Positions 1,869 through 50,729 of a DNA stretch of 53,821 bases are shown one piece after another. The DNA is taken from positions 1-53,821 of the IMG/VR virus record IMGVR_UViG_3300006124_000002, one strand, 5' to 3'. The stretch is from a virus. Lineage: Duplodnaviria > Caudoviricetes. The notes below the pieces were generated by a model. That model had not been told where the DNA came from. It ran no database searches and saw nothing but the letters and a program-made list of their open reading frames with translations. Position 1 is the stretch's first letter. Every line of letters begins with the position of its first letter. The translations under genes and the position numbers were made by a program.

Positions 1869-4800
1869 TTATCGCATATCTCTCAAGAGATCCAATGCGG
1901 CGGCTGAAGTATCTTTTCTCCTGTCCTTTGCCCTATCATAAACAGATAGTTGTTCTTGGTTAAGACTGTTCAAGAAGTCTTTCACTTGATCCTTGTTTGG
2001 GAACAATCTCATAGAAGGATATGTGTTTTTATAATATTTTTGAATCGTTGAAGCTGGTTCTTTTTCCAGAAGTTTTTGCATTTCAATCCTAGCATTGGTC
2101 ATGTTTCCAATCATTAACGCATGATTTAGATCACGATATTTTGCTGAATGTCCAGCTTCCCTATCTTCAATTTTATTATCCAATTTGAAGTGATTTGCCA
2201 AAGTGTACATACGAGACTCATCACTAGGAGCTTGCTCAAGTTTAACACCAAATGTGGAGAACAATTGCTTTTGATATTGACCAGCAAATTGTTGATTCGG
2301 TTCACCACTAGCGGCTTCTTTAGCGGCTGAATAAATTGTAGCTCCAGCAATAGGAAGAGGAACAGAATCCTCTAGCATTCCTTTCCACTTCTGACCGGGT
2401 GCATAATATGTACCCAACATATTTTTGTTGGTAACAGCATCCCATACTGGACGCATAGGAACGGATGAACGACTACGGAAATAGTCCATTGCGGTTTGTA
2501 ATGCATCTCCAGTTCTCTCATATCCCTTCATCAAAAGATGAGTTGTTTCCATAGCAAGGGACATTGGATTAAGGAAGAACCCCGGCCCTCCCCAAGCATC
2601 TGGAATCCAAGCACTAATCTTTGCTCCAATTCCTTCCTCTGGATTTTCCCATGTAGGAGTTCCCCTTGTTGCGTAATTGATCATTTGGTTAGCAACAAAT
2701 TGTGCAACCATCATTCCACCAACTGATCGTGCAAGGACTCCAGCAAAAAGACGCTTGCCAGTTGCGGCATCAAGCAATGCCTTTCCTGTCTGACCCATTG
2801 CACCAAGTTCAGTACGGATTAGACCTTCGTTCCATTGAGGGGCAAGGAACATAAACCTAGCAGTATCTTGCATAGTTTTGCTTTTTAGAAGCCCCTGCCT
2901 TCCAAGATTTCCGAAACGAGTATTAAGATCCTTGCTTACCATCCTAGCGACATCAGCTTCTGGTAAACTTGGATAAGCATTACGATAGCGTTGGAACTCA
3001 AGCAACCAACTTTCGGACATTGCTCCACGCTGGAATTGATTAAAAAGCCAAGAGTTGAAGTCTCCAAGACCGGGTATTTTATGTACCCAATCTTGATGCA
3101 GAGCATCAGAAATACCACCAACATTGTATCCTGTCTTAACGGCAAGGTTTAAGAGACGCTTGTTTTCTAATAATCCTTTTGCCCATTTCTTTGGAATCTC
3201 TCCATTGGCAATCATCTTCTGCAACTCTGGTAATGATTGATCAAGAAGCGTTGCTCCTTTGCGATATGAAGGTACAGGAAGTTTGAATGTTTTAATTCCA
3301 AGTGCTTTGATCAAAGAATCCCAAATTGCAATACGACCAAGGTGATATGTATCCAACCCAAGAGTAATTGATTTGCCAGCACCAGCAGTCTTCTGAATGG
3401 TTTGACCAACCATGTTTTTGCTCCATGCAGAAGGGTCATTCAAAGCCCCAATAATGCCTTCATAACCATCTTTGATTGCCACACGCTGACCAGCAAGAGT
3501 CTCTTGTTTGTAACCTCTAGGAACTTGTAGATAGCTTGAACCATCTGGACGCTTGACGATTGAAACCTTGGTAGCAATAGGATCGCCAGATGCAGGGTCA
3601 ATAGTGCCTTTTAAGGAGTCAATCCAAGAACGATAGTTAATTGATTTCTGACCAGATGACAGACGCTTTTGGAGAAGATCAACAGCATTGATGCTCTTCG
3701 GGTCTATACCAGCGGCAATTGAATCAGCAAAGGTATCATAGGTACGCATTTTGCGAAAACCAGTTGCTGATCCTGCACCAGAACCACCAAAGAGTTCTTG
3801 TTCCTCTAGGTCTTGGTAGTGGGGAACATATCCATCACGCACAGGAGTATCTATTCCGTTAGCATTCTCTTGGGCTACTTGGTGAAGACCAATCTGTTCG
3901 TACTTTTGTGCTATAGGATCAAAGCGAGAGAAGTTTTTATCAGCAAAGTCAATTGCGGCTATGGCTTTCTTCTTCCATGCAGGATTTGCATCTGGAGAGT
4001 TTTCAATCTTTTGCCTCATGTTTGCCAACTCCATCTGATCTCCCTTGGCTTCAATTACGAATGAAAGAGCATCAGCGGCCTTATCTTTCTGGCCCTTGAA
4101 CTCACGCTTGAGATCATTAGCAACTTCATTGCTCTGTTGTTTTGAATAGATATTGGCGGCATTGTCACCAGCATCCCTCATGTATGAGATAGCTTCCTTG
4201 GCTGGCTTACGCTTGAAAGTATTTACGATGGTATTGCGAGTCTTCTTAACAACAGGTGTTGCTTGGAAACGAGTCTCAATCTCCTCCCGCTTCTTGGATG
4301 CCTCTTGTTCAGTAGGACGATCCTGCTGGAACATGGGCTGACCTTCTTTGGTCACGCTCTCACGCATCTCTGGCGTGATCTCGACTTTCCAGATTTTGGT
4401 AGCTGGTTTTTCTTCAACACGAATTTTGCCATCCAAAACATTATTTGAAAGATACTCTTCAGCAAGTTGCTTGTTTTGGAAATTTCTAGTTTTACCATTT
4501 TCAAGCTGAACTACATATTTACCAACATCACCTAAATCTGTTTCTTCAACCTTTGCGCCCCACTTCTTGACATACTTGCCAATCTCTTTGGGAAGGATCT
4601 GGTCGTAGAAGCCTTTCATGCCTTCGCCGCCTACTTTGAGGTCAACGCCTGAAAGGGTTCTAACTCCACCTTTGTATGGTGCATCGACAATCTTTTGTGC
4701 CGCTTCTTTTCCAATATAATCAGCTAATTTATCTGGAGTAACATCAGATGCTACTTCTCTTAAATGTATAGCATCTCCACCTTTTTCACGAACCCAAAGT

Positions 4801-7800
4801 TTTTTTCCAATAGGACTCCATTGAACTTCGTCAACTTGCTTACTCAAGTCATAGCGTTCGGACTGCGTGTCTCCTTTAGTCCAGCCTACCCACTCCTTGC
4901 CGCTTGCGATAGCATCACGCAAGGCTCGCTTAAACATCTGGACTGACCAATCTTTGCGGAAGGGAGCGTCAGGTACTCCAGATTTAGCCATAAGATCAGC
5001 CTTACGTTCTGCTTCTGCTTCGGTGTCTTCTTGACCTACAATTCTTCCATTTTCATCATAAATAGACCAGACCTCTCCCTCAATAGTATCTCTTGGCAGA
5101 ACCCTTAATTCTTTATTATTTTCTCCCTTATATCCTTGCTCCCTTCCCTGCTGATGCCTGTCAGACTGAATCTCTTCAATAAACAAGCCATTGCGTCCCT
5201 CGCTATCAGGACGCTCGTCTAGCCTCATGTGGGCTACATAGTTGGGGATGTCTCGGAAGTGAGAAGAGGTGTATTCAACTTTTGAACGACCCTGCGTTTC
5301 TTGTGAAAGGCGATTATATTCAGCAATGTTCTCTTCGGTATGTGGAAGAGATTTTAACTCGTTCATTCGCTTAATTCGCGAATCTGTTGAAGGCATCGTC
5401 AGCACAACCTCCCTGTAGTTTTCGCCATTAGGCAGAATCAAATCTCCTCTTTCATATTTTGGACGATTCTCAATACCAGCATCGTTAATCTCCAAGGCTT
5501 CCACACGGGCAGTCATGTGGTTAGCTTCTTTCCACAAGGCATTTGCCCTTGTCTGATTGCCAACACGCTGTGCTTGTCTAGCTTGCCTTTCAAATTCCTC
5601 TTGCTTTGCATACAGGGTATCAGCGGTACTCTTGTCACGGATGTTTTGAAGCCTCATTAACTCTTGGAATGTTCCGCTTCCAAGACGATCATCAATAGCA
5701 CCAAGAGGAGCCTTGGCATTTTCCTTCTCAAGATATGCAAGCCTTTCCTTATCGGCATTTGATAGAACTTCATCTGGTCTTGCACCAAGGCGAACCTCCT
5801 CAAACTTCACAGCACCCTCGTTCTTGAGGTAGTCAAGCACCTCCTCCTTGGTGACGCTCTTCTTGCCCTCTAGGAAGCCATCAATGTTGCTCCACTTGAG
5901 TTCGTCAGGCTTTACTCCACTTCCCTTTGCAGGGTCAATGATAGCCTTGATCTGCTCTACAGATGCCTTGTTCGGCATCTTGTCTGTTATCGTCCTTTGG
6001 AGTTGGGAGTAGAAGTCTTTGTTCCTTTTCTCTTCGTCCTGTTGGAACATTGGGCCTTTGCCTTCCTCTGGAGCAGACACAGGCTCATCCTTGCCTTCAG
6101 CAAACTTGCTCAATCCATCGACAAGCATATCCCTAGCCTTCTGGATGTCCTTGGTAAAGTCTCCACCCATCTTCCAATCCTTAAGTTGGTAGAGGAGTTT
6201 GTTCAGCCAATCAACGGTCTTGGTAGCAAGTTCCTTGAAAGACTTGGGATTCTTCTTGGCAAGATCATTCCAGAACTTCGGGTCTTGCATGGCATCCCCA
6301 AGGAAGTCTCCAATGTGTTCATCAAAGAAACGGGACTTGTCATAACCAGCCGCTTTGTATTTGGCTTCTAATCCTGCCCAATCCTTAATCAAAGGCGTAA
6401 TCTGCATTCGCAGACTATTTGCCAGCACAGGAGAGTTCAGTTCAATGTGATGCCACAATTCGTGACCAGCAGTAAAGAGATGCGGTCTAGCACCATCAAT
6501 CTTTAAGAAAATATAATCCTTGAGTGCAGGGTCAACACCCGTAGCACCATTGATCTTGGTTCCCTCTTCGCCTTTGTAGAGAACGATCTTCTTGCCAAAA
6601 ATCCCTGCTAATTTGTCTGCCAGTTTATAGGCAGGGTTGTTAATTAACTGGCGTAGATCTTGTAGGGTTGGGAGATGGAACCTTTGTCTGTTATTCGTTC
6701 GTGCATCTTCCTTATTGAGTCGCTGTAGTGCCTCGTTCGCTTCATCAAAGAAAGCCGTATTTGGCATCGCTGAACGCAGTTCAGCTTCGGTCGTTTGGCT
6801 TGTTTCACCTTCGCCTCCTACTTTTTCACCTTCACCTTGTGGCTGTGCAGTTCCCGCTTCAGCTTCTCCTTCTGGCTTGGCTTCAGCGGAGACACTTTCG
6901 ACAGAAGATACCCCACCTGTTTTTTGCTCTTGGTTTTGGGTTGTTGTTTCATCTTTTGGTGCAAATCGTTCATCACCTTGAGGGGTTGGAATCTCAATGT
7001 CAATGGGTTTTCCTTGCCTCAACAATTGCATCTGATCGGCAATCTTTGATGCTCTTGCCCTCAATGCAGGGCGGTCTTGATGATCTTCTGGCAAATTGCC
7101 AAGTTGATTTGCAACATCAGCGGCTTGTTGTTTCAACACACCCCATTGAGCATCCACCTTTTGTTGATCAACAGTCTGTGGTGCTGGAGCTTGATCATTT
7201 GCCCCGGCGTTAATCTTGGCTTCTTTTTCGTTTACAAAAGGATTTTTAGAAGGAGTCAATCCAGCATGAAGTCCAGCAAATGCACCAAATGCAATATCTG
7301 GAACAGCTTGCTCAATTGTAGGCATGACATTCTGTCCTTGAGCCGCACGAATGCCAGCAGATGTTGCCAGATTAACTCCAGCGGCGGCTGTACCTCCTGC
7401 AAGGCCCCTAACCAAAGGAGAAACCCCTTTTAACAAAGCACTTGTTGCTTTAGCAGTAAGTTCTCCACCAACTGTATATGCGGCAAGTGCAGGAACTGTG
7501 GCTAGTGCCGCTTCACTTCCTGCTCTGTGTCCAGCGGAATCAAGCTGTGATTGATCAGTCACTCCCTGCTGTTTTAATTCAGCAACCTTGGCATCATATC
7601 CTTCACCATAGGCTTGACTCCCACCCATAATTGCCATCGTTGGCAATGCCAATGGCCCTGCCAACATAGCTGGAGCTAATCCTACAACATTACCAACACC
7701 TCTTCCAAGCTGTGCCGCTATGGATGTGTCTTTTTGAGATACTCCAAATGCAGGAAACATTCCAGCGGCTTGTTCACTTAATACTCCCGCTTGCTGACCA

Positions 7801-30754: not shown

Positions 30755-30806
30755 AGTTGATGCAAATACTTGTCTTTGTTTCTAAAAGTTGTCAATACTT
30801 TTGGAC

Positions 30807-32732
30807 ATGGAATATAACGGATTTTCTTTAGAGCAACCAAAAGATACAAATTACGGAATACCAAATTTGATTCATGTTCCACAAATGTTTCGTGAGCTAA
30901 CGGCATATCGTTTGACTCGTGGAGAGTTTGGAAGACGTGAAAGAATCAAAAATGGTATTAAATTAGAACAATCTGGTTTGTTAAATCCTGCACAGCACAT
31001 GATCAATGCCTTCCAATTGATCTACGGCAATGATGTTTTGCTCCATTCTCAAGGAATACCCAACAATTATGCCATAGACATTATTGATTTGTTTTGTAAT
31101 GAGAACGATTGGGGCATTGCAGGGTGTGCAAGTAGTGGAAAAACCTTTTCAGTTGCCGCTTGCATTGTGATTGATTGGCTTTGCGCCCCCGATTGTACAT
31201 CCACATATGTTGCTTCTACCTCTTTGGACGCATCAGAAGACCGTCTTTGGGGTAAAGTATGTACGCTTTACCGTACAGCAATGAGGAATATTCAAGCCCA
31301 ATATGGTGCAAATCAGAGTATTGGAAACCTTGTAGAGTACCGTAGAATGATTGTTTTTGAGACAATTGACACCAAAGATACGGAACGAGACTATACAAAT
31401 GCTATTAAAGCATTGGCTTTTCCCAAGGGTGGTGAAGGAAAACGGTCTGTAGAAAATACACGGGGTAGAAAGAATGCCAGAATGCGGTTGTTTTTGGACG
31501 AATTGGCTGAAATGGATCTCTACGCATTGGATACCCGTGTCAACCTTGGTGCTAACCCCGATTTTATCTTTGGCGGCATGGCAAACCCAGCGGCTACCGC
31601 AAACAATCCCCATACGGAGCTATGTCAGCCCGATGATCCTATGGAATGGGATGCCGTAACCCGTTACACAAAGAAATGGAAGACTCGTACAGGAGTAGCA
31701 TTGCATCTTTCTGGAGAAGATAGTCCAAACTTCAAGGTTCCAGATGCTGAAATACCCCCATTTGATCGTTTCCTTACCGTCCAAGGAGAGGCCGCTACTT
31801 TAAAACGATGCTATGGCAATAAGAATGCCCTAGAATACTGGCGAAATGTCTATGGATGGTGGCCCGATTCTTCCGTAGAACTCACAATCTTCTCAAAACA
31901 GTTCATTCAAGCGTGTGATATTAATTGGGAACCCGTATGGAGTAACAGAACACGGGTAGTTTGCGGCTTTGACCCTGCATTTACGGCAGGAGGAAACAGA
32001 TGTGCGGCTACATTTTGCCGATTTGGGCCAAATGATACCGGGAGAAACCTTGGATTCTACCTTGGAACCCGTGAATATACCTCATCTGTGGGTGATGTTT
32101 TTGAGGAAAGCATTGCAATGCAGTTGGTTAAAGATTGTTTGGAATATGGAGTCCATCCAAGGGACTTTGGATTGGATATTTCGGGTGATGGCGGCAAGAT
32201 GATGAGGGCAATTATCATCGAATGGAGTAAGTTCCATCCAGAAGCCATGTTTGTATTCCCCATTTCCTCAATGGGAATGCCTACGGAAAGGAAAATCAGC
32301 AATCTGGATAAGCGAACTTGTAAAGAAGCGTATGATCGGTTGGTTACGGAGTACTGGTTTGCCGTCCATACGGCCCTGTCTACACGCTCTTTGGTTGGTA
32401 TTGATGTAGAGAAGCACTCTCAAGTAGTAAACGAGTTGTGTAGCCGTCTGTACTACCACAAGGGAAGGAAGGTTGCCGTGGAAAAGAAGCTGGATATGAA
32501 GCATAGGTTGAAGAAATCTCCCGATTTGGCTGACTCTTTGACCTATGCCGTCCAGATGCTTCGCCGGGCAGGACTAGAGTTTTCGTTTGAGGAGGAGTCA
32601 GAATCTTTGGACATCCAAGAAATCAGCGATTGGGAGAACCGATTGATCCATTCCAAAAACAACACCCAAGAAAAACTTGAGGATGATGAATGGGGATATG
32701 GTGGCAAGGGTTGTGATGAGGACGGCTTCTAG
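30807..32732 (+). CDS. terL: Terminase large subunit
   Basis: Walker A GCASSGKT, Walker B LFLDELAE, motif C MANP, nuclease CGFDPA and KSPDLADSL. Confidence 0.9.
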   Translation: MEYNGFSLEQPKDTNYGIPNLIHVPQMFRELTAYRLTRGEFGRRERIKNGIKLEQSGLLNPAQHMINAFQLIYGNDVLLHSQGIPNNYAIDIIDLFCNENDWGIAGCASSGKTFSVAACIVIDWLCAPDCTSTYVASTSLDASEDRLWGKVCTLYRTAMRNIQAQYGANQSIGNLVEYRRMIVFETIDTKDTERDYTNAIKALAFPKGGEGKRSVENTRGRKNARMRLFLDELAEMDLYALDTRVNLGANPDFIFGGMANPAATANNPHTELCQPDDPMEWDAVTRYTKKWKTRTGVALHLSGEDSPNFKVPDAEIPPFDRFLTVQGEAATLKRCYGNKNALEYWRNVYGWWPDSSVELTIFSKQFIQACDINWEPVWSNRTRVVCGFDPAFTAGGNRCAATFCRFGPNDTGRNLGFYLGTREYTSSVGDVFEESIAMQLVKDCLEYGVHPRDFGLDISGDGGKMMRAIIIEWSKFHPEAMFVFPISSMGMPTERKISNLDKRTCKEAYDRLVTEYWFAVHTALSTRSLVGIDVEKHSQVVNELCSRLYYHKGRKVAVEKKLDMKHRLKKSPDLADSLTYAVQMLRRAGLEFSFEEESESLDIQEISDWENRLIHSKNNTQEKLEDDEWGYGGKGCDEDGF

Positions 32733-32737
32733 GAAAC

Positions 32738-32779
32738 ACGGGGCGTGAGATAGCTTGCATTGGCAGAGGCCCGCCCCGT
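32738..32779 (-). ncRNA. Small structured motif 3' of tRNA-Trp (core GCCTCTGCC-N-GCAAGC)
   Basis: 8-bp outer stem ACGGGGCG/CGCCCCGT enclosing a core that recurs at 36966-36985. Confidence 0.45.
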
Positions 32780-32788
32780 CTCCTAAAA

Positions 32789-32865
32789 TGGCACAGCCTG
32801 TTGGAATCGAACCAACCCAGTCGGATTTGGAGTCCAACTCGCCCATCCTTGGAACATGAGACTGC
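32789..32865 (-). tRNA. trnW: tRNA-Trp (CCA)
   Basis: Acceptor GCAGTCT/AGGCTGT, anticodon arm TTGGA-CTCCAAA-TCCGA, T arm GTTGG-TTCGATT-CCAAC, G73, encoded CCA. Confidence 0.88.
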
Positions 32866-32871
32866 GATAAA

Positions 32872-32909
32872 AATTTATTGTTGACGCATGGATTCGTCAA
32901 TGCCAAAGT
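32872..32909. promoter_or_regulatory. Overlapping divergent promoters on a TTGACG...CGTCAA palindrome
   Basis: Minus strand: TTGACG-17-TAAATT ahead of tRNA-Trp. Plus strand: TTGACG-17-CAAAGT ahead of the 32913 RNA. Confidence 0.55.
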
Positions 32910-32912
32910 CAC

Positions 32913-33096
32913 TTCATTCTGAATGGTGACGCATTCTGACAAGACTTTCCTCACAACAAAAGAAAGCCCCGCTGTAGTGCGTCACCACTCGGCGGGGCTT
33001 GTCCGTTATAGCAAGTGAGGATGGATGTGAATGCGTACCACATGATCCAATAACTCGGCTCTGGAGAACCAAAACTCCTTACCCGACGAGAATGAA
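32913..33096 (+). ncRNA. Candidate ~185-nt structured RNA with loop-loop complementarity
   Basis: Closing stem TTCATTCT/AGAATGAA; internal stems GAATG/CATTC, CCTCAC/GTGAGG, AAGCCCCGC/GCGGGGCTT, ATGTG/CACAT, GGAG/CTCC. Confidence 0.55.
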
Positions 33097-33224
33097 AAGA
33101 AGCGAACAGCATCCAGCATAGCGGGGTGTTGTGGTTTCTTTTCCTTACTCTTTCCTTTCCCGCTATGGAGTGGGGGGTAATGGGGGGTGTTTCCTTTCTC
33201 CTTCGGTTTTCTTTAGCGTTAAGA

Positions 33225-33253
33225 TTGACCAGTTAATAAAACACAGGCATAAT
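33225..33253 (+). promoter_or_regulatory. Sigma70 promoter of the pentein gene (near-leaderless mRNA)
   Basis: TTGACC-17-CATAAT, ending 10 nt before the ATG at 33264. Confidence 0.65.
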
Positions 33254-33263
33254 TTTAACACTT

Positions 33264-34232
33264 ATGGCGAAATTCACACCGCAAGATTACAAGAATGGAT
33301 CATCTATCCCATCTGTACTTGTGGGTGACTCATCTGTTGCCTCCCTTATCAAAGGCTCTTCTTCTGGTATTGCACCTAACCATACCGCAGGAGAACTCTA
33401 CAAAAGGAAACCACAATTCGTGATGTGTCCTCCAAAGTATCTTTCCACTCGCATTCCGAACAATGTGTTCATGAAAAATGAGAAGGTGGATACGGAAAGG
33501 GCAATGCGCCAGTATACCCGGATCAAAAGAAAAATCACCGCACTTGATGTTCAAGTGTTGGAAATCCCCCCGCAGAAAGATTGTCAAGATCAACACTACA
33601 CCGCCAACATTGGCATAGCCTTAAACCCATTCATTGTTCTCGCCAAGTTTTCCGCTGATGGCAGGACACAGGAAGAAGCTCCAGCAAAAAAGTTTTTTGA
33701 AGGACGAGGCTATACGGTGATCCAGCCCCCACACCCATTTGAGGGAGAAGCCGACCTCAAGAAATGGCAAGATGGGGTGTATTTCGGCGGTCATGGAAAG
33801 TTCAGCGATTGGAAAGCGCATGAATGGATCATGAAAAAAACGGGTGTTGAGATTATCCCAATCCGTGAAACATCCGATTCCCTTTACCATCTTGATTGCT
33901 CACTCTTCGTGATTGATAAGGAAAACTTTATGGTGTGCAAGGGAGGCATGGATCGAGAGTCATTCAAGCGTCTTGAAAAGGTTGCCAACATCATTGTGGT
34001 TCCAGAGGATGTCATGGCTACAGGAGCAACCAACTTGGTCAAAATCCCAGGCAATAAGAAGATCATGTTGTCTGGTATGTTCCAGCCAGAGTTCCCCAAC
34101 TATAGAAAAGGAATGGAGTGGATGTTGACAACTATGGATAAGTTTGGCTATTCCATCATTTTCTGTGACATTGATGAAGCCGACAAATCCGGGGCCGACA
34201 TATCCTGTATGGTCATGCATTTGGATTTTTAG
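33264..34232 (+). CDS. Pentein superfamily enzyme (amidinotransferase / dimethylargininase / arginine dihydrolase-like), 322 aa
   Basis: MCPP..., DQHYTAN, FEGEAD, YHLDC and C-terminal KSGADISC; the catalytic Glu/His/Cys residues appear intact. Confidence 0.85.
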   Translation: MAKFTPQDYKNGSSIPSVLVGDSSVASLIKGSSSGIAPNHTAGELYKRKPQFVMCPPKYLSTRIPNNVFMKNEKVDTERAMRQYTRIKRKITALDVQVLEIPPQKDCQDQHYTANIGIALNPFIVLAKFSADGRTQEEAPAKKFFEGRGYTVIQPPHPFEGEADLKKWQDGVYFGGHGKFSDWKAHEWIMKKTGVEIIPIRETSDSLYHLDCSLFVIDKENFMVCKGGMDRESFKRLEKVANIIVVPEDVMATGATNLVKIPGNKKIMLSGMFQPEFPNYRKGMEWMLTTMDKFGYSIIFCDIDEADKSGADISCMVMHLDF

Positions 34233-34236
34233 ATCC

Positions 34237-34407
34237 ATGAACAATTTCCTCAAATGGTTAATTGGGGGAATTGCTTATCTTAACGGGAACTGTCCCGAAT
34301 GTTGGAAAGAAATGAATACTTGTCATGGTGATCCTTGCCACGTATGCCGTGTCGGTGGAATTTTCCCGCCCAAAGACATCTGGCGTAGATTTATACAATC
34401 AAAATAA
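34237..34407 (+). CDS. Small Cys-rich (zinc-binding) protein
   Basis: CPEC...C...CHVC. Confidence 0.55.
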   Translation: MNNFLKWLIGGIAYLNGNCPECWKEMNTCHGDPCHVCRVGGIFPPKDIWRRFIQSK

Positions 34408-34413
34408 AAACCC

Positions 34414-34731
34414 ATGACACCAGAACAAGATGCCCATGAAATTTGGAACAAAGCATCAGAAGCTGGTTTAGAAAAATACTTTGCTGGAAGCAGGGAACAC
34501 AGAACCCAATTTTGGACTGCTGGTGCAGGATGGTATGCCAAGAACCTAAAGGACGAGCAATTAGATCTTGTCAGTTACCTTCACCATCTTACCAACAGGA
34601 TTGAATCCATCCAGTTCCTTGCCCAAATGATGGAGGAAGACAATGTGTCGTTGAGAGATGCGGCAACAATCCTAAAGGAACTTGTTTCCGATAGATCACC
34701 AAAAGACATTCCCCATCAATCCAATGACTAA
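34414..34731 (+). CDS. All-alpha nucleotide pyrophosphohydrolase-like (MazG-like) protein
   Basis: GLEKY..G...LKDEQLDLVSYL resembles the GxxKY...EExxD..xYL pattern. Confidence 0.45.
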   Translation: MTPEQDAHEIWNKASEAGLEKYFAGSREHRTQFWTAGAGWYAKNLKDEQLDLVSYLHHLTNRIESIQFLAQMMEEDNVSLRDAATILKELVSDRSPKDIPHQSND

Positions 34732-35527
34732 AAAACCCATTGTCGGGGCAATTGTTGCATCCGATCTCCATTGCGGATCTACCGTTGGTCTATGGCCCGA
34801 CGGCTTTGAAACCAAAAGCGGCAACAAGGTTGGTCTTGGAAACAACCTTCACCAACAATGGTTATGGCAATGTTGGCAGGACTCCACGGAAAAGGCACTC
34901 AAGCACTTTGGTAAAGACCCGTTTGCCTTGTTCCTTAACGGCGATCTTCTTGAGGGACGGCATCATGGTACTGATCAAATCGTTGCCGCTGATTGTCTCG
35001 ATCATTCCAATGCGGCAATCCAATGTCTCCAACCTCTGGTTAAATCCGCATCTGTCATTTACCTTACCGCTGGTACGGAATGCCATGTCAAAGATTGGGA
35101 ACAGTATATTGCCAAACAAATTCATGGAAAGTGGTGTGGTGACAAAGCACTCATCGAAATCCACGGAACTCTCATTGACATGGCCCACCATATGCCAACG
35201 AGTTCTAGGGCATACCTAGAAGCAGGAGCAATGTCTATAACAATGGGCAACGCCCGTCAGAATTACTCCCGTGTCGGGCATAGGGTTCCAAAAGTTTATT
35301 TACGAGGCCATCGCCACACGGGGGGAATCTTTAACGATGGATCTGGAATCTTCATGGTCACACCAGCATGGCAACTACTGACCCGCTATGCCCACAAAGT
35401 TGTGGGGGATTCCATATGCCGTCCCGGTATTGGCATCCTAGATTGGCGTGGATGTGACCAAGGAGAATTACCAGCAACCAAACTAATCCAACATGAACCG
35501 AAAGAAACTAGACCCATCAGAAGCTGA
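34724..35527 (+). CDS. Calcineurin-like metallophosphoesterase
   Basis: SDLHCG, NGDLLEG, GTECH, AHH and GHRH motifs. Confidence 0.8.
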   Translation: MTKKPIVGAIVASDLHCGSTVGLWPDGFETKSGNKVGLGNNLHQQWLWQCWQDSTEKALKHFGKDPFALFLNGDLLEGRHHGTDQIVAADCLDHSNAAIQCLQPLVKSASVIYLTAGTECHVKDWEQYIAKQIHGKWCGDKALIEIHGTLIDMAHHMPTSSRAYLEAGAMSITMGNARQNYSRVGHRVPKVYLRGHRHTGGIFNDGSGIFMVTPAWQLLTRYAHKVVGDSICRPGIGILDWRGCDQGELPATKLIQHEPKETRPIRS

Positions 35528-35786
35528 ACTACGCCAGAGTGCCATTGAATCAATCAAGGCAATCTTGACAATCCCAACGGAAGAAGAAATTGGAATAGGT
35601 GATTGGGTATCGGTAAACCAATTGGTCAAAGAATTTAAATTAAGCCGGGACATTATTGCCAAAAGATTGGATCGTAGGGTTGCGGCTGGCGAGATGGAAA
35701 TGAAGAAAGAATCCTGTTTGTCCAAGGGAAAAGTATGCGTCATGAACTTCTATCGCATGGCAAATGAAATTACCCGCCCGTATTAA
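35493..35786 (+). CDS. Putative winged-HTH protein, 97 aa
   Basis: WVSVNQLVKEFKLSRDIIAKRLDRRVAAGEM helix-turn-helix-wing pattern. Confidence 0.5.
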   Translation: MNRKKLDPSEAELRQSAIESIKAILTIPTEEEIGIGDWVSVNQLVKEFKLSRDIIAKRLDRRVAAGEMEMKKESCLSKGKVCVMNFYRMANEITRPY

Positions 35787-36015
35787 GATAGAAGATAGAA
35801 AATTGGGGAGGGAGCGCAATGACGGGCAAGCTACCTTTGCCGACAAAAAGATAGAAATAGATCCACGCCTCTCAACCAAAAAAAGGTTGAATATCGTTCT
35901 CCATGAAGGGATACACATCCTTGACCCTAACTTTCCAGAATTGAAAGTAAGAGCCTACGCCAACCGGCTCTCCGATCTGCTCTGGCGAGACAGGTGGAGA
36001 AGGCTGGAGAAATGA
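35764..36015 (+). CDS. Mini zincin (HExxH) protein, 83 aa
   Basis: IEIDPRL...VLHEGIH...E. Confidence 0.6.
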   Translation: MKLPARIKIEDRKLGRERNDGQATFADKKIEIDPRLSTKKRLNIVLHEGIHILDPNFPELKVRAYANRLSDLLWRDRWRRLEK

Positions 36016-36216
36016 TTATGTGTATTGCACCAATTGCCCTTGATGATGAGCAAGGAGTTGGAGTATTGCCTTTCCTTCCGCAGTAACGATATGACCGCTA
36101 CCTTGGCACTTCCAGCATGGTTCTCCACTTCCCTCATCGTACCAGTTACGACCCGTGCCTCCGCACTCATCGCAACTTTTCTCTAGGGCATTTGATGTAT
36201 TGAATAGTGCATTCAT
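36016..36216 (-). CDS. Anti-TRAP (RtpA)-like DnaJ-type zinc-finger protein, 66 aa
   Basis: LEKSCDECGGTG...GEPCWKCQGSGHIVTAEGKAILQLLAHH parallels the B. subtilis anti-TRAP layout (two CxxCxGxG motifs plus a TxxG helix); GGAG upstream. Confidence 0.65.
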   Translation of the reverse strand: MNALFNTSNALEKSCDECGGTGRNWYDEGSGEPCWKCQGSGHIVTAEGKAILQLLAHHQGQLVQYT

Positions 36217-36273
36217 ACAAATCTCCAACTAGCAGATTTTTTATTTTCCCGCAATACCTTTTTTATTTTCTAA

Positions 36274-36501
36274 ATGAACAGACAAGACGATGCATTTGAG
36301 GAAGCAAAACAACTTGCCAGGGAAGGCAAGGAATATTCACACTTGATCAATCGGATGTGGGTAATAAACTCCGACCAGTTTGACCACTTCTTAACCACGC
36401 TAGACCCAGAGATTGCCACCAAAACCATTTACGGAATGCTGGCACTCAAACGGAGACAATCCAAAACAATCCCCAAAGGCCGGGGAAGACCACGCAAATA
36501 A
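36274..36501 (+). CDS. Hypothetical protein with a C-terminal AT-hook-like GRGRPRK
   Basis: ORF track and motif. Confidence 0.6.
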   Translation: MNRQDDAFEEAKQLAREGKEYSHLINRMWVINSDQFDHFLTTLDPEIATKTIYGMLALKRRQSKTIPKGRGRPRK

Positions 36502-36538
36502 GTTCATACTCTAATTTTATTGGTTAAATTTTAGACTA

Positions 36539-36612
36539 TACCGATTGGTGTAACGGTAGCACAGGGGACTTTGACTCCCCTAGTCATGGTTCAAATCCAT
36601 GATCGGTAGCCA
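36539..36612 (+). tRNA. trnQ: tRNA-Gln (TTG)
   Basis: Acceptor TACCGAT/ATCGGTA, anticodon arm GGGGA-CTTTGAC-TCCCC, T arm CATGG-TTCAAAT-CCATG, encoded CCA. Confidence 0.93.
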
Positions 36613-36952
36613 ATCAAAGGCTTTAGAAAAGGACGCATTTTCAATAATCCGTCCTTCTGAAAAGGATAGATACCCTGCTACCATTCAAGAGTGGTGGAAA
36701 TGGTTTACTCCCAAATTGTAGTAGGATGTCCAATCTACTTTTTTTGAAGGAAATAGTGGGTAGTTTTTCTTTCAGGAATGTAGCAGTTCATAGACATATT
36801 TGCGTTCACGGTAGCGCGAACACTACACTCGTCTTGTTTATCGTGCAGTCTGGAAGTGTAGCATGATTTGATTAGCGGATGCTGGGATAATCACCCATGA
36901 GGGGAATCCAACTACTAATTGTAAACATTTTAGTAGTTCTTTATAAATAAGA

Positions 36953-36994
36953 ACCCCCCTGGTGCGCTTGCTCACAGGCAGAGGCGTGAGGGGT
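36953..36994 (-). ncRNA. Second copy of the small GCCTCTGCC-N-GCAAGC motif
   Basis: CCCCT-CA-CGC-CTC-TGC-loop-GCA-A-GCG-CACC-AGGGG, 3' of the CCA-ending RNA. Confidence 0.45.
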
Positions 36995-37007
36995 ATAATT
37001 ATAAAAT

Positions 37008-37246
37008 TGGAGTCCCGCTGGGCGAACCATGTGGAATCGAGTTTCCCCGATACGGGACTGTTGAGGACGGCCCGCTATTGTGCGACCTATCGCCTATCCT
37101 TTGGCTATACGGCTATTCCCCGATCCGTAAAGGGCTGGAATCGTTCGCTTCCGATTCTGTAAGGACTCATCTCTGGCGGTAGTTTCCTACCCTATGGGAG
37201 CGACCCACCATCGGATATTTCCAATGCAACCAGCAATGATTCCGAT
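37008..37246 (-). ncRNA. Candidate ~240-nt multi-domain structured RNA ending in CCA
   Basis: Stems ATCGGA/TCCGAT, GGTAG-GAAA-CTACC, GAATCG/CGATTC, TCCTT/AAGGA, AGTCCCG/CGGGACT, ATCGGG-GAAA-CTCGAT. GNRA loops occur on this strand; TTGCAA-17-AATAGT lies upstream. Confidence 0.6.
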
Positions 37247-37264
37247 TGAACTATTAGGAATTCC

Positions 37265-37474
37265 CTAAAAATTTGCAAGCCCCTTCTCAATACCAAAAGT
37301 AGCATTTTTCCACATCTTCACCTGTCCCGTATTAAAGTGCTTCACGCTCCCATCAGCACACATACACACCGTCCACACATCATTGTCAAATACCCCACTA
37401 CTCTCCACATAAATAGCATACCCATCTCCAACAGGAGTCAGCACAGGCATTGGATTACGGAATTCGTGGATCAT
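37265..37474 (-). CDS. Hypothetical phage protein, 69 aa
   Basis: Compact beta protein (TPVGDGYAIYV...NDVWTV). Confidence 0.7.
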   Translation of the reverse strand: MIHEFRNPMPVLTPVGDGYAIYVESSGVFDNDVWTVCMCADGSVKHFNTGQVKMWKNATFGIEKGLANF

Positions 37475-39276: not shown

Positions 39277-40131
39277 ATGAGCAAAGAAAAAGTTGACGTA
39301 TATCAAATTGTAACTGACAGAATCATCGACTTGTTAGAAGATGGTGTTGTTCCTTGGCACAAGCCATGGGCGGGAGGTAGTAATCAACTACCCATGAACC
39401 TTGTGAGTAAAAAGGCTTACAGGGGACTAAATGTATGGTTACTCTCATGCTCTGGTTATGCTTCCCCTTATTGGGTAAGTTACAAACAGGCAACAGAGTT
39501 AGGTGGACAAGTTAGGAAGGGTGAGAAATCAACCCTTGTGGTCTACTGGAAGATGTTTGAAACAATCGACAAAGACACAAAGGAGAAAAAGGTTATCCCG
39601 ATGCTCCGTTACTATAATGTATTTAATGTTAGCCAATGTGACGGAATTAATGTCCCAGATACGGAGACGCAACCAACGATAGATTTCAATCCTATCGAAG
39701 AAGCGGAGAAAATCGTAGCTAATATGACGAAGGTTCCACGCATCACTCATATTGAGCAACAGGCTTATTATAACAGGTCAAGTGACCATGTTAATATGCC
39801 ACAGAAAGAAACCTTCAAAGGTGAGGCTGAATACTACTCGACCCTGTTTCATGAGTTGACGCACTCAACTGGCCATGAATCCCGGTTAGGGAGGTTTCAG
39901 AATCAAGTTAGTAAATTCGGTGATAGCAACTACGCAAAAGAGGAATTGATTGCCGAGATGGGAGCTAGTTATCTGTGCGCGATGGCTGGCATTGTTGATC
40001 GCACAATCGACAATAGTGCCGCTTATATTGCCAACTGGTTGACCAAGCTACGCAACGACAAAAAGCTAGTAGTTAGTGCGGCGGGAAAAGCCCATGCCGC
40101 TTGTGATTATATCCTTGGAGTTAGTGCCTAG
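39277..40131 (+). CDS. ardC: ArdC-like antirestriction protein (ssDNA-binding domain plus zincin domain)
   Basis: VTDRII..LE.GVVPWHKPW, YRGLN, GGQVRKGEKS, VFNVSQ, YYSTLFHELTHSTGH, YAKEELIAE; AAGGAG SD. Confidence 0.92.
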   Translation: MSKEKVDVYQIVTDRIIDLLEDGVVPWHKPWAGGSNQLPMNLVSKKAYRGLNVWLLSCSGYASPYWVSYKQATELGGQVRKGEKSTLVVYWKMFETIDKDTKEKKVIPMLRYYNVFNVSQCDGINVPDTETQPTIDFNPIEEAEKIVANMTKVPRITHIEQQAYYNRSSDHVNMPQKETFKGEAEYYSTLFHELTHSTGHESRLGRFQNQVSKFGDSNYAKEELIAEMGASYLCAMAGIVDRTIDNSAAYIANWLTKLRNDKKLVVSAAGKAHAACDYILGVSA

Positions 40132-46994: not shown

Positions 46995-47322
46995 GGCTAG
47001 AGGAAACACTACCCGCCGAGTGGCGGGTAAGATGAACAAGACTGAAGAGGCTTATTCAAATACTCTACAAGAAAGGAAACTCCGAGGAGAGATTCATCAT
47101 TGGAGCTTTGAAACAATCACCTTAAGATTGGCAGACAGAACAACCTATACGCCAGATTTCTTTTTGATGTTACCTAACGGAGAGATCCAGTTCCATGAAG
47201 TCAAAGGTTTCTGGCATCAAGCTGGACGCATTAAAATAAAAGTAGCGGCTGAAAATCATCCTTGGTTTGACTTCCAAGCAGTACAACTCAAGAAAAAGGA
47301 GTGGGTCTATGAGCAGTTTTAA
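46981..47322 (+). CDS. PD-(D/E)XK endonuclease (DUF1064-like, possible resolvase)
   Basis: MNKTEEAY...TYTPDF...FHEVKGF. Confidence 0.75.
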   Translation: MRRFRARGNTTRRVAGKMNKTEEAYSNTLQERKLRGEIHHWSFETITLRLADRTTYTPDFFLMLPNGEIQFHEVKGFWHQAGRIKIKVAAENHPWFDFQAVQLKKKEWVYEQF

Positions 47323-48004
47323 TATTAATAATAAATGGTCTGTTCAACAGATTTCATTTTCTGATGTTGAGCCTTGGTTATTGAAACGCCATTATGCCAG
47401 AAGGATTCCACCTATTTCTTATGCATTTGGTGCATTTGAGGGTAATAATTTGATTGGAATTATTACATATGGAGTTCCTTTAAGCTCCACATTAAGAACT
47501 GGAATATGCGGTGAAGAATATGAACATTTAGTTCTTGAGCTTAATAGGCTTTGTTGCAGGAATGAAAAAAATATAGCAAGTAGATTAGTTTCCAACTCTA
47601 TGGATTTAATTCGAAAACCAAGAATAATTGTTAGTTATGCAGATACATCACAAGGTCATGTGGGATATGTGTATCAAGCAACCAATTTTATTTATACTGG
47701 ACTCACGGCAAAAATGATGGATTGGAAGGTTAGGGGTAAAGATTCTCTTCATCATTGTTCTATTGGTGATGAGTTTAGGGGACAGGAAAATAGATCCCAA
47801 AAAATGAAAGAAAAGTATGGAGACCTTCTTTACCAAGAGGAAAGATCCAGAAAGCACAGATATGTTTTTTTTATAGGAAATAAGAAAGAAAAAAAGAAAA
47901 TTAAATCAGTATTGAAATACGAAATAAAACCTTATCCAAAAGGTGAAACAAAAAAATATGATTCAAGCGGGTATATTGAAACTCAAATGCTTTTAATTTC
48001 ATGA
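47309..48004 (+). CDS. mom: Mom-like DNA adenine modification enzyme (GNAT fold)
   Basis: HYA.R.P...AFG...GIITYG.P...LELNRL...IVSYAD..QGHVGYVYQATNFIYTG...KHRY. Confidence 0.8.
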   Translation: MSSFNINNKWSVQQISFSDVEPWLLKRHYARRIPPISYAFGAFEGNNLIGIITYGVPLSSTLRTGICGEEYEHLVLELNRLCCRNEKNIASRLVSNSMDLIRKPRIIVSYADTSQGHVGYVYQATNFIYTGLTAKMMDWKVRGKDSLHHCSIGDEFRGQENRSQKMKEKYGDLLYQEERSRKHRYVFFIGNKKEKKKIKSVLKYEIKPYPKGETKKYDSSGYIETQMLLIS

Positions 48005-50096: not shown

Positions 50097-50729
50097 ATGA
50101 ACCCCGACACCACCAAAATGGAAACGCTAAATAAAGAACTCAACTTCATAGGCTTCCCTAAGATTGCACGGCTTAATCGCCAAGTCATCGTCACCGAGAA
50201 GATCGATGGAACTAATGCTCAGATACGCATCACTAAAGATGGTCAATTCCTAGTGGGGTCTCGCTCTCGCTGGATAACTCCTGATAACGACAACCACGGA
50301 TTCGCTAAGTGGGCATACGCCCATAAAGACTCCCTGATGGAGCTAGGCGTAGGCTCCCACTTCGGAGAGTGGTGGGGAAGTGGCATTCAGCGTGGCTATG
50401 GATACACGCAGGGAGAGAAATTCTTCTCCCTATTTAACGTACAGCGTTGGTGCTTGGAGGGAAGTGCCCCGCAAAAGATGCCTACCGCTGACCCTCGCAT
50501 TGAGAAATACCAAGACGTTCTTCCTGCTTGCTGTGGCCTTGTTCCGATTCTTGGAGTCGGAGACTTCAACGAGGCGAACAAGCAGATTGAGCGGCTAAAG
50601 ATCGAGGGGAGCCAAGCCGTAAAAGGATACATGAATCCAGAAGGAGTGATTGCGTTTCACGTTGCTGGAAATGTGGGATTCAAGGTCACGATTCAAAAAG
50701 ACGAGGAACCGAAAGGAAAAACAAAATGA
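50097..50729 (+). CDS. RNA ligase (Rnl2-type adenylyltransferase domain)
   Basis: FPKI.R, motif I TEKIDGTN, GSR.R, FGEWWGSGIQ, F.LF, PEGV, FK. Confidence 0.85.
   Translation: MNPDTTKMETLNKELNFIGFPKIARLNRQVIVTEKIDGTNAQIRITKDGQFLVGSRSRWITPDNDNHGFAKWAYAHKDSLMELGVGSHFGEWWGSGIQRGYGYTQGEKFFSLFNVQRWCLEGSAPQKMPTADPRIEKYQDVLPACCGLVPILGVGDFNEANKQIERLKIEGSQAVKGYMNPEGVIAFHVAGNVGFKVTIQKDEEPKGKTK

Follow-up and report, generated by a model that had tools for sequence, protein, structure and literature searches.

We examined two small RNA hairpins, here called copy 1 and copy 2, in the phage genome IMGVR_UViG_3300006124_000002 (Duplodnaviria; Caudoviricetes). This record, complete at 53,821 bp and bounded by direct terminal repeats, was analyzed over its whole length, here called the window. 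Both hairpins lie on the minus strand, copy 1 beyond a tRNA-Trp gene and copy 2 beyond a noncoding RNA of ~240 nucleotides (nt). The minus-strand structural genes of this phage extend to ~30.7 kb, and plus-strand early or replication genes follow the large terminase gene (TerL). IMG/VR holds more than 100 contigs related to this phage. The loci compared are denoted by L-numbers (L005, L026 and so on), and the TerL-related loci among them are referred to as the window group. The features at the two sites are the following.

30789–32732, plus strand: large terminase gene (TerL)
32729–32917: cassette of promoter, tRNA-Trp and copy 1, delimited by blastn against the loci compared
32738–32779, minus strand: copy 1, a type C hairpin, with the core GCCUCUGCC-AAU-GCAAGC at 32753–32770
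32789–32865, minus strand: tRNA-Trp (CCA anticodon) with an encoded 3′ CCA, identified by ARAGORN
32872–32900, minus strand: promoter-like TTGACG-17-TAAATT before tRNA-Trp, a consensus match only
36539–36612, plus strand: tRNA-Gln (UUG), on the strand opposite to copy 2
36953–36994, minus strand: copy 2, a type B abiF-like hairpin, with the core GCCUCUGCC-UGUGA-GCAAGC at 36966–36985
37008–37244, minus strand: ~240-nt RNA with no family matched, its 5′ end estimated by eye from a promoter-like site
about 37251–37278, minus strand: promoter-like TTGCAA-16-TAATAG ahead of the ~240-nt RNA

The two hairpins and their immediate neighbors

The pattern GCCTCTGCC-N(1–12)-GCAAGC has exactly two occurrences in the 53,821 nt of the window, each on the minus strand (32753–32770 and 36966–36985), compared with an expected count of 0 from 100 dinucleotide-preserving shuffles. 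The shared minus-strand motif reported in the initial annotation is therefore real. The 9-mer alone is not unusual, with 14 occurrences at one mismatch versus 9.0 expected. Both cores (GCCUCUGCC..GCAAGC) are enclosed by 42-nt hairpins with unrelated outer stems. Copy 1 reads ACGGGGCG / GGC / CUC / UGC-CAAU-GCA / A / GCU / AUCUCA / CGCCCCGU and comprises an 8-bp outer stem, P1 (ACGGGGCG/CGCCCCGU), an inner stem, P2 (GGC/GCU), an apical hairpin, P3 (UGC-CAAU-GCA), and a 6-nt 3′ bulge (AUCUCA); the sequence immediately beyond the hairpin is GUUUCCUA, with 4 U in 8 nt. Copy 2 reads ACCCCUC / A / CGC / CUC / UGC-CUGUGA-GCA / A / GCG / CACCA / GGGGGGU, with a 7-bp P1 that includes one G–U pair (ACCCCUC/GGGGGGU), an unpaired A, a P2 of CGC/GCG and a 5-nt bulge (CACCA), and is followed by UCUUAUUUAU. 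The enclosing stem originally proposed for copy 2 (CCCCT/AGGGG) does pair, but the helix is longer than was proposed. Folding energies of the single sequences are unexceptional (z = −1.65 for copy 1 and −0.75 for copy 2), and the structure is supported instead by the covariation among relatives described below.

Two other explanations of the shared motif were considered and rejected. A recent duplication does not account for copies 1 and 2, as their flanks and outer stems are unrelated. A plus-strand promoter overlying the motif (TTGGCA-18-TAAAAT, CTCACA-17-TATAAT) was discarded by eye, as neither the two copies nor the other type C loci have the spacing and hexamers in common.

Copy 1 starts 9 nt past the encoded CCA of tRNA-Trp. 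The Rfam tRNA model falls below threshold at this tRNA, the best match being tRNA-Sec, which scores 32.9 bits where its threshold is 47; the D-arm region looks atypical, and the same tRNA is kept in relatives. The cassette at 32729–32917 is absent by blastn from the closest relatives, L005 and L003, which have 43 nt in its place, and in more distant relatives tRNA-Trp lies within a plus-strand Gln-Asn-Trp array. Copy 2 occupies the convergent gap between tRNA-Gln and the ~240-nt RNA, starting 13 nt past a CCA (37010–37008) that caps an 8-bp helix. This helix, followed by the CCA, forms the 3′ domain of the ~240-nt RNA (its last 52 nt, 37008–37066; fold z = −2.4), a domain that recalls a tRNA acceptor-stem minihelix. 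Apart from noise, the Rfam search at E ≤ 10 assigns no family to the ~240-nt RNA, whose primary transcript probably continues through copy 2. The RNA is kept in L005 and L003, where the CCA position reads UCA; because the nearest relatives read UCA or UUA, ending in CCA is no conserved property of this RNA. On the 3′ side, the sequence beyond copy 1 is antisense to the terminase gene and that beyond copy 2 is antisense to tRNA-Gln.

The minus-strand gap at 36613–37280, between tRNA-Gln and a group of small minus-strand genes, is a mosaic hot spot of small-RNA modules, with equivalent regions in L005, L026, L031, L051, L056, L058, L060, L062 and L081. The modules (the 5′ part of the ~240-nt RNA, abiF-type hairpins, a 'CCGUGAUCGAAAGGUUGCGUGAUGGGCAAGG' module and tRNAs) are reshuffled among related phages, and in some of these the strand is inverted.

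Kinship with the abiF RNA family

AbiF, a HEPN RNase of the Abi_2 family, is an abortive-infection toxin of bacteria. The abiF RNA (Rfam RF03085) is reported to be the antitoxin of AbiF, which it binds directly, and mutations that break its stem are reported to abolish neutralization (10.1101/2025.04.15.648962). A review describes AbiF as processing its own RNA and the bulge nucleotides of that RNA as blocking the HEPN site (PMC12737573). The window hairpins resemble abiF RNA in the succession of an outer stem, an unpaired A, a 3-bp NGC/GCN′ stem, a loop beginning with CUCU, a 3′ bulge of 5–6 nt and the closing strand of the outer stem. They differ from it in that their loops carry an extra small hairpin (UGC..GCA) and that the phage has no abiF gene; copy 1 differs further in its 8-bp stem, its AUCUCA bulge and its lack of the unpaired A.

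Copy 2 aligns with RF03085 at 22.6 bits and in register (outer stem / A / NGC / CUCU...GCN / bulge / outer stem), and it possesses the outer stem, unpaired A, 3-bp inner stem and loop of the abiF-type fold together with a bulge of 5 nt where the family has 6. A covariance model built from five abiF-type relatives with the window sequence excluded (model R1) detects copy 2 at 26.1 bits (E = 4e-4 in 929 kb). In four related phages, Rfam abiF matches above the threshold of 37 bits (L021, 55.4; L068, 53.9; L041, 46.5; L026, 43.2). A structure-aware scan of the TerL-related loci returned 33 matches versus 13–17 in shuffles, family members being evident by eye, and the form ACCCCUC-A-AGC-CUCU-N7-GCU-CAAACA-GAGGGGU was found in the same small-RNA region of these loci. 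Because a MAFFT alignment of all types misaligned the 3′ halves, model-guided alignments were used instead. For types A and B together (10 distinct sequences), such an alignment has 100% of cells paired, compensatory changes in 6 of 10 pairs and a covariation score reached by 0 of 500 shuffles, values that are biased in favor of the structure to which the alignment was fitted.

The forms also occur side by side and in combination. L026 carries a canonical hairpin and, ~115 nt downstream in one transcript region, the copy-2 form, and L072 has the copy-2 loop on a canonical base (A-AGC...GCU-CAAACC). A pattern scan of prokaryotes, with one genome per species, gave 89 stretches, and 49 model hits were obtained within the 80 loci searched. 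Five of these 49 are long-loop hairpins (A-CGC-CUCU-G...GCG-CAACCC) with the same inner stem as copy 2, and all five stand directly 5′ of a gene of the toxin family Abi_2 (Pfam E ≤ 1e-44). The Rhizobium phage RHEph21 carries ACCCCCC-A-CGC-CUCU-CGAAGAA-GCG-CAUCA-GGGGGGU, which passes Rfam at 38.0 bits; its base is nearly identical to that of copy 2, the main difference being a loop of 7 nt rather than 12 nt. Set against the CAAAYC type of abiF, the 3′ bulges read CACCA in copy 2, CAUCA in RHEph21, CAACCC in the bacterial Abi_2-linked hairpins and AUCUCA in copy 1, the last of which resembles none of the abiF-type bulges compared. A search for type B beyond its own phage group gave 37 pattern matches, only 10 of which have a flanking stem, and all 10 belong to this group. 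From these sequence comparisons, we take copy 2 to be a relative of abiF RNA that has diverged and has a long loop, although it falls outside the family by the Rfam cut-off. The earlier label of an unclassified element no longer applies to it, since copy 2 is of a divergent abiF type and related phages exceed the Rfam threshold in the same region.

Copy 1 belongs to a second class, type C. The pattern GCCTCTGCNNATGCAAGCT matched 19 viral stretches, of which 15 are the same 42-nt hairpin; L170, L172, L175 and L180 are stemless and were dropped. With the window included, type C amounts to 16 copies and 6 distinct sequences, among which P1 has compensatory changes in five of eight pairs and 100% of cells paired. 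The interior is nearly invariant, and P2 and P3 never vary, so that covariation neither supports nor contradicts them. The structural conservation suspected from the two window copies is thus borne out, with a covarying outer stem and a fixed interior. The motif also recurs in other phages: type C is found in the window's group (L056, L177), in 42.5-kb and 63-kb genomes with terminal repeats and in tRNA-rich contigs of 76–199 kb. An exact 20-base pattern had 0 matches in 185,579 prokaryote species genomes. The type C covariance model (R3), which has copy 1 in its training set, scores this training member at 69.8 bits and detects no canonical hairpin in 885 kb of viral loci.

Except for the unpaired A, copy 1 fits the abiF-type fold. 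The conserved abiF core xGC-CUCU...GCy is present in both window copies (x/y = G/U in copy 1 and C/G in copy 2), which also share the apical part CUC-UGC..GCA-A and the GC pairs of P2. A G-initial inner stem is found in the hairpin of Synechococcus phage S-CBS4 as well (GGC/GCC). Furthermore, type C (L056, L177), a canonical variant (L062) and the canonical hairpin (L026) replace one another in the slot directly 5′ of the same conserved downstream RNA. On the strength of the shared architecture and core, the apical hairpin, the G-initial stem and the slot replacement, we lean toward viewing type C, and copy 1 with it, as a derived abiF-type hairpin.

Orphan status and proximity to tRNA genes

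A six-frame search with Pfam Abi_2 (PF07751) at E ≤ 1 found no match in the window, in five window-group records or in five type C phage records, 6 of these 10 uncultured records being at least 90% complete by CheckV. The six-frame PF07751 search was equally negative in the complete cultured phages S-CBS4, RHEph21 and Minerva. As a positive control, 10 of 20 open reading frames (ORFs) adjoining bacterial motifs were identified as Abi_2. The window hairpins are therefore orphans, with no Abi_2 gene in this phage. Among loci with canonical motifs, an Abi_2 profile of our own, built from 10 bacterial ORFs, detected an Abi_2-like ORF in 23 of 89 from prokaryotes and in 4 of 106 from viruses. The same profile detected none in the 161 window-group loci, the 18 type C loci or the 35 type B loci.

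Adjacency was counted for full-length motifs flanked on each side by 1,200 nt or more, requiring an Abi_2-like ORF within 400 nt on the same strand. Such an ORF adjoins 16 of 27 prokaryotic motifs (8 downstream, 8 upstream) versus 0 of 40 viral ones, these being counts of copies from loci that were not de-replicated rather than of independent events. Hairpins resembling the AbiF antitoxin are thus almost always orphans on viral contigs; they often stand a few nt from tRNAs and include the phage-specific types B and C. The top 'bacterial' hit, L225, is a contig of a metagenome-assembled genome labeled Rubrivivax that encodes psbA, a T7-type major capsid protein and a tail tube protein (2355–5650). 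Its orphan abiF hairpin lies between psbA and the capsid gene, and the contig looks like that of a cyanopodovirus binned into a bacterial genome. In several Clostridia, one Abi_2 gene stands between two different abiF hairpins, a layout like repeat-gene-repeat, with a long-loop CGC/GCG hairpin in front and a canonical one ~55 nt past the stop (L242:1689–2771, L273:6135–7218, L221:5048–6120, L223:4798–5873, L236:3996–5053).

Among type C copies, 13 of 16 lie within 10 nt of a same-strand tRNA. Outside the window, 12 of 15 have a same-strand tRNA (Glu, Gly or Met) starting 8–10 nt downstream; copy 1 differs in having its tRNA 9 nt upstream. Type C hairpins are usually found past an ORF stop, which in L176 is that of the terminase gene. 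Viral canonical hairpins lie within 20 nt of a same-strand tRNA in 16 of 66 cases (12 distinct sequences), compared with a chance level of ~0.7% and 2 of 44 in prokaryote loci, and 44 of the 66 have no tRNA within 300 nt on either strand. The tRNA association proposed at the outset accordingly survives as a frequency, although the hairpin usually precedes the tRNA and many copies have none nearby. The placement directly 3′ of CCA-ending RNAs, by comparison, does not generalize: the CCA before copy 2 is unconserved, and in most other phages the hairpin is found 4–10 nt upstream of a tRNA, past an ORF stop or past a promoter. In L317 (1359–1500) and L341 (779–920), a canonical abiF hairpin is set between two tRNAs, 3–4 nt from the first and 4 nt from the second, and judging from this arrangement tRNA processing alone would release it.

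Two further RNAs were seen beside phage tRNAs. In relatives, a conserved RNA of ~180–200 nt directly follows tRNA-Trp or tRNA-Met, beginning with GGGGGAAUCUUCGGUGAACC and ending with CCUCCCCCGACC plus a U run (L031:15263–15440, L060:15603–15790, L058:13183–13380, L051:16190–16390); at the Rfam gathering threshold, L031 and L060, the two of these four loci that were searched, gave nothing but tRNAs. A Glutamine-II riboswitch aptamer (Rfam, 44.9 bits) stands beside a tRNA in S-CBS4 (L411, 3206–3262).

Proposed function and competing explanations

The orphan copies occur in lytic-type phages within strongly expressed tRNA and noncoding RNA units, for which antitoxin mimicry is the most economical reading, and a phage without an AbiF gene makes its hairpins candidate orphan mimics of the antitoxin. 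We consider the chances evenly poised that both elements are abiF-type mimics that neutralize a host AbiF, maybe released by tRNA processing and maybe serving also as 3′-end hairpins. The hairpins would be transcribed at a high level as the 3′ domains of the tRNA-Trp and ~240-nt RNA transcripts, and RNase P together with the tRNA 3′-end enzymes would excise them as discrete small RNAs, excision at the tRNA border substituting for the processing by AbiF of its own RNA. By supplying the inhibitor RNA, the phage would keep host AbiF blocked when infection would otherwise release it. The presence of two hairpin versions per genome (types B and C in the window, A and B in L026) could cover different AbiF variants. 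The window hairpins probably double as terminators or 3′-end hairpins, located as they are where minus-strand transcripts must end. AbiF binding, release by tRNA processing and an effect on defense are thus predicted properties of these putative decoys. A wider proposal, that phages widely deploy toxin-less AbiF-antitoxin decoys in tRNA arrays and that type C is a phage-only class directed against an unmatched AbiF-like or HEPN nuclease, is more tentative, and we would not yet favor it.

There are precedents for phage RNAs that resemble the RNA partner of a defense protein. Pseudo-ToxI of phage PhiTE is reported to be an RNA mimic of ToxI by which the phage escapes ToxIN (PMC3475682). Like the window hairpins, it is a phage RNA resembling a type III antitoxin without its toxin; it differs in that ToxN is not a HEPN protein, that it consists of tandem 36-nt repeats and that its function is described as experimentally established, where ours is putative. 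RNA anti-CRISPRs (Racrs) are described as solitary repeat units in phages (PMC10651486). They too are orphan viral copies of the RNA partner of a defense nuclease, but they mimic CRISPR repeats and target Cas proteins. The only phage countermeasure to AbiF that we found described is one unrelated hairpin from the cos region of lactococcal phage sk1, which inhibits AbiF and does not resemble AbiF RNA (PMC13064643). The likeness to our case lies in a phage RNA hairpin set against AbiF, and the difference in the resemblance of the window hairpins to AbiF RNA itself. In the cyanophage S-CREM1, an abiF sRNA was annotated through Rfam with no role proposed, in a paper that notes three phage genomes listed in Rfam (PMC9964418); a later review calls the role of phage abiF sRNA unconfirmed. 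S-CREM1 likewise has an abiF-type RNA in a lytic phage, and the passages covered do not describe orphan status, tRNA adjacency or the long-loop and type C forms. In the literature covered, from which the primary AbiF/Cas13 paper and supplements fall outside, we found no description of orphan abiF hairpins across phages, of their juxtaposition with tRNAs or of types B and C.

Several results weigh against the decoy proposal. Copy 1 has no RF03085 match at E ≤ 10, even in a 201-nt search (32700–32900), and type C as a whole, copy 1 included, goes undetected both by the Rfam abiF model and by the abiF-type models R1 and R2, the latter two with filters off. Conversely, R3 finds nothing in 628 kb of abiF-bearing bacterial loci, and its score on copy 2 (14.4 bits, E = 2.3), the best outside type C, is not significant. 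Type C lacks the unpaired A, and its AUCUCA bulge is unlike the CAAAYC type that is said to block AbiF. Copy 2 is itself below the RF03085 gathering threshold (22.6 versus 37 bits). Finally, TerL has 0 matches among 50,697 cultured phage records, which leaves the phage with no close cultured relative and the AbiF of its host putative.

The main rival is a terminator-only role, in which the hairpins are structured intrinsic terminators or 3′-end protectors and the shared interior stems from the common ancestry of a phage terminator cassette unconnected with AbiF. Their G+C-rich outer stems with U-rich tails (such as UCUUAUUUAU after copy 2) and the position of type C mostly behind an ORF stop are as this explanation expects. 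Two further points in its favor count directly against decoys, namely that the 8 nt after the hairpin contain 5 U or more in 15 of 16 type C copies, as in intrinsic terminators, and that both window copies fall between convergent genes, a position that calls for a terminator in any case. However, a near-invariant interior combined with covariation in five of eight outer-stem pairs is contrary to what would be required of a plain terminator. At 12 loci, the tRNA that begins 8–10 nt past the hairpin leaves no room for a promoter and requires read-through, and canonical copies are followed by more RNA (L021, L026, L062, L081) or lie between two tRNAs. The base of copy 2 is, moreover, that of Abi_2-linked hairpins, and a consensus terminator scan lists neither copy, their loops exceeding the limit of the scan. 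We judge a terminator-only role unlikely; a double role as decoy and 3′-end hairpin, which is likely, is included in the reading that we favor.

The recurrent tight spacing of 3–10 nt to tRNA ends in many phages could instead mark a recognition or processing signal for maturation of the adjoining tRNA or noncoding RNA, either read by a host or phage RNase or self-cleaving. HDV-like theta ribozymes occur behind phage tRNAs, and the initial annotation raised a 3′-processing ribozyme as one possibility. Theta ribozymes share with the window elements the position of a small RNA beside phage tRNAs; the window fold differs as a simple bulged hairpin with no ribozyme match. No ribozyme family matched at the Rfam threshold or at E ≤ 10 in either 32600–37400 or 32700–32900, in agreement with the misfit to HDV, hammerhead and pistol patterns perceived at the outset, and what is conserved in the hairpins corresponds to the AbiF antitoxin RNA. 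Of the three options offered originally (ribozyme, nuclease signal or protein-binding site), the ribozyme thus falls away and a protein-binding site comes closest. AbiF is reported to process its own RNA, so the fold is that of a known nuclease substrate, which suits a processing signal. Yet the hairpin is found both 5′ and 3′ of tRNAs, 50 of the 66 canonical copies from viruses have no same-strand tRNA within 20 nt, no candidate for a phage nuclease partner was found beside the copies, and RNase P and the tRNA 3′-end enzymes need no such signal. We regard this explanation as quite unlikely.

It is more improbable still that the phage carries an entire toxin-antitoxin or exclusion system, with the hairpins as its antitoxins and a toxin that has diverged too far to be recognized as Abi_2. 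Prophages in Clostridioides difficile are reported to carry AbiF systems, and an Abi_2-like ORF is present in the 4 of 106 viral canonical-motif loci listed above. The six-frame search at E ≤ 1 nevertheless found no Abi_2 in the window and 10 other phage records, and where the bacterial toxin adjoins its hairpin on the same strand, the sequence downstream here is antisense to the terminase gene or to tRNA-Gln. Least probable of all are RNA anti-CRISPRs against an effector of the Cas13 type, the repeats of which have been proposed to derive from AbiF RNA; solitary repeat mimics in phages and a relationship between AbiF and Cas13 have both been reported, but no Rfam CRISPR-repeat family matches either copy, and the similarity is to abiF RNA itself.

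Should the hairpins prove to be decoys, they would represent a common RNA-based anti-defense strategy and a functional reason for some phage tRNA clusters, and, if their release occurs as proposed, a natural tRNA-flanked system for releasing small RNAs. Cultured carriers of orphan hairpins make the decoy reading directly testable: Mycobacterium phage Minerva and Rhizobium phage RHEph21 have matches above the Rfam threshold, and Synechococcus phage S-CBS4 carries an orphan hairpin by sequence similarity and reading only. Three plus-strand genes elsewhere in the window match counter-defense or RNA-repair families, as listed below, and are consistent with a counter-defense repertoire of this phage.

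39277–40131, plus strand: ArdC-N and zincin peptidase gene
47267–48004, plus strand: Mom-family gene
50097–50729, plus strand: gene with an RNA ligase domain

We also observe, among the plus-strand genes, a minus-strand gene for a 70-amino-acid protein (36016–36228) that matches the Anti-TRAP / DnaJ zinc-finger family with an E value of 2.7e-10.

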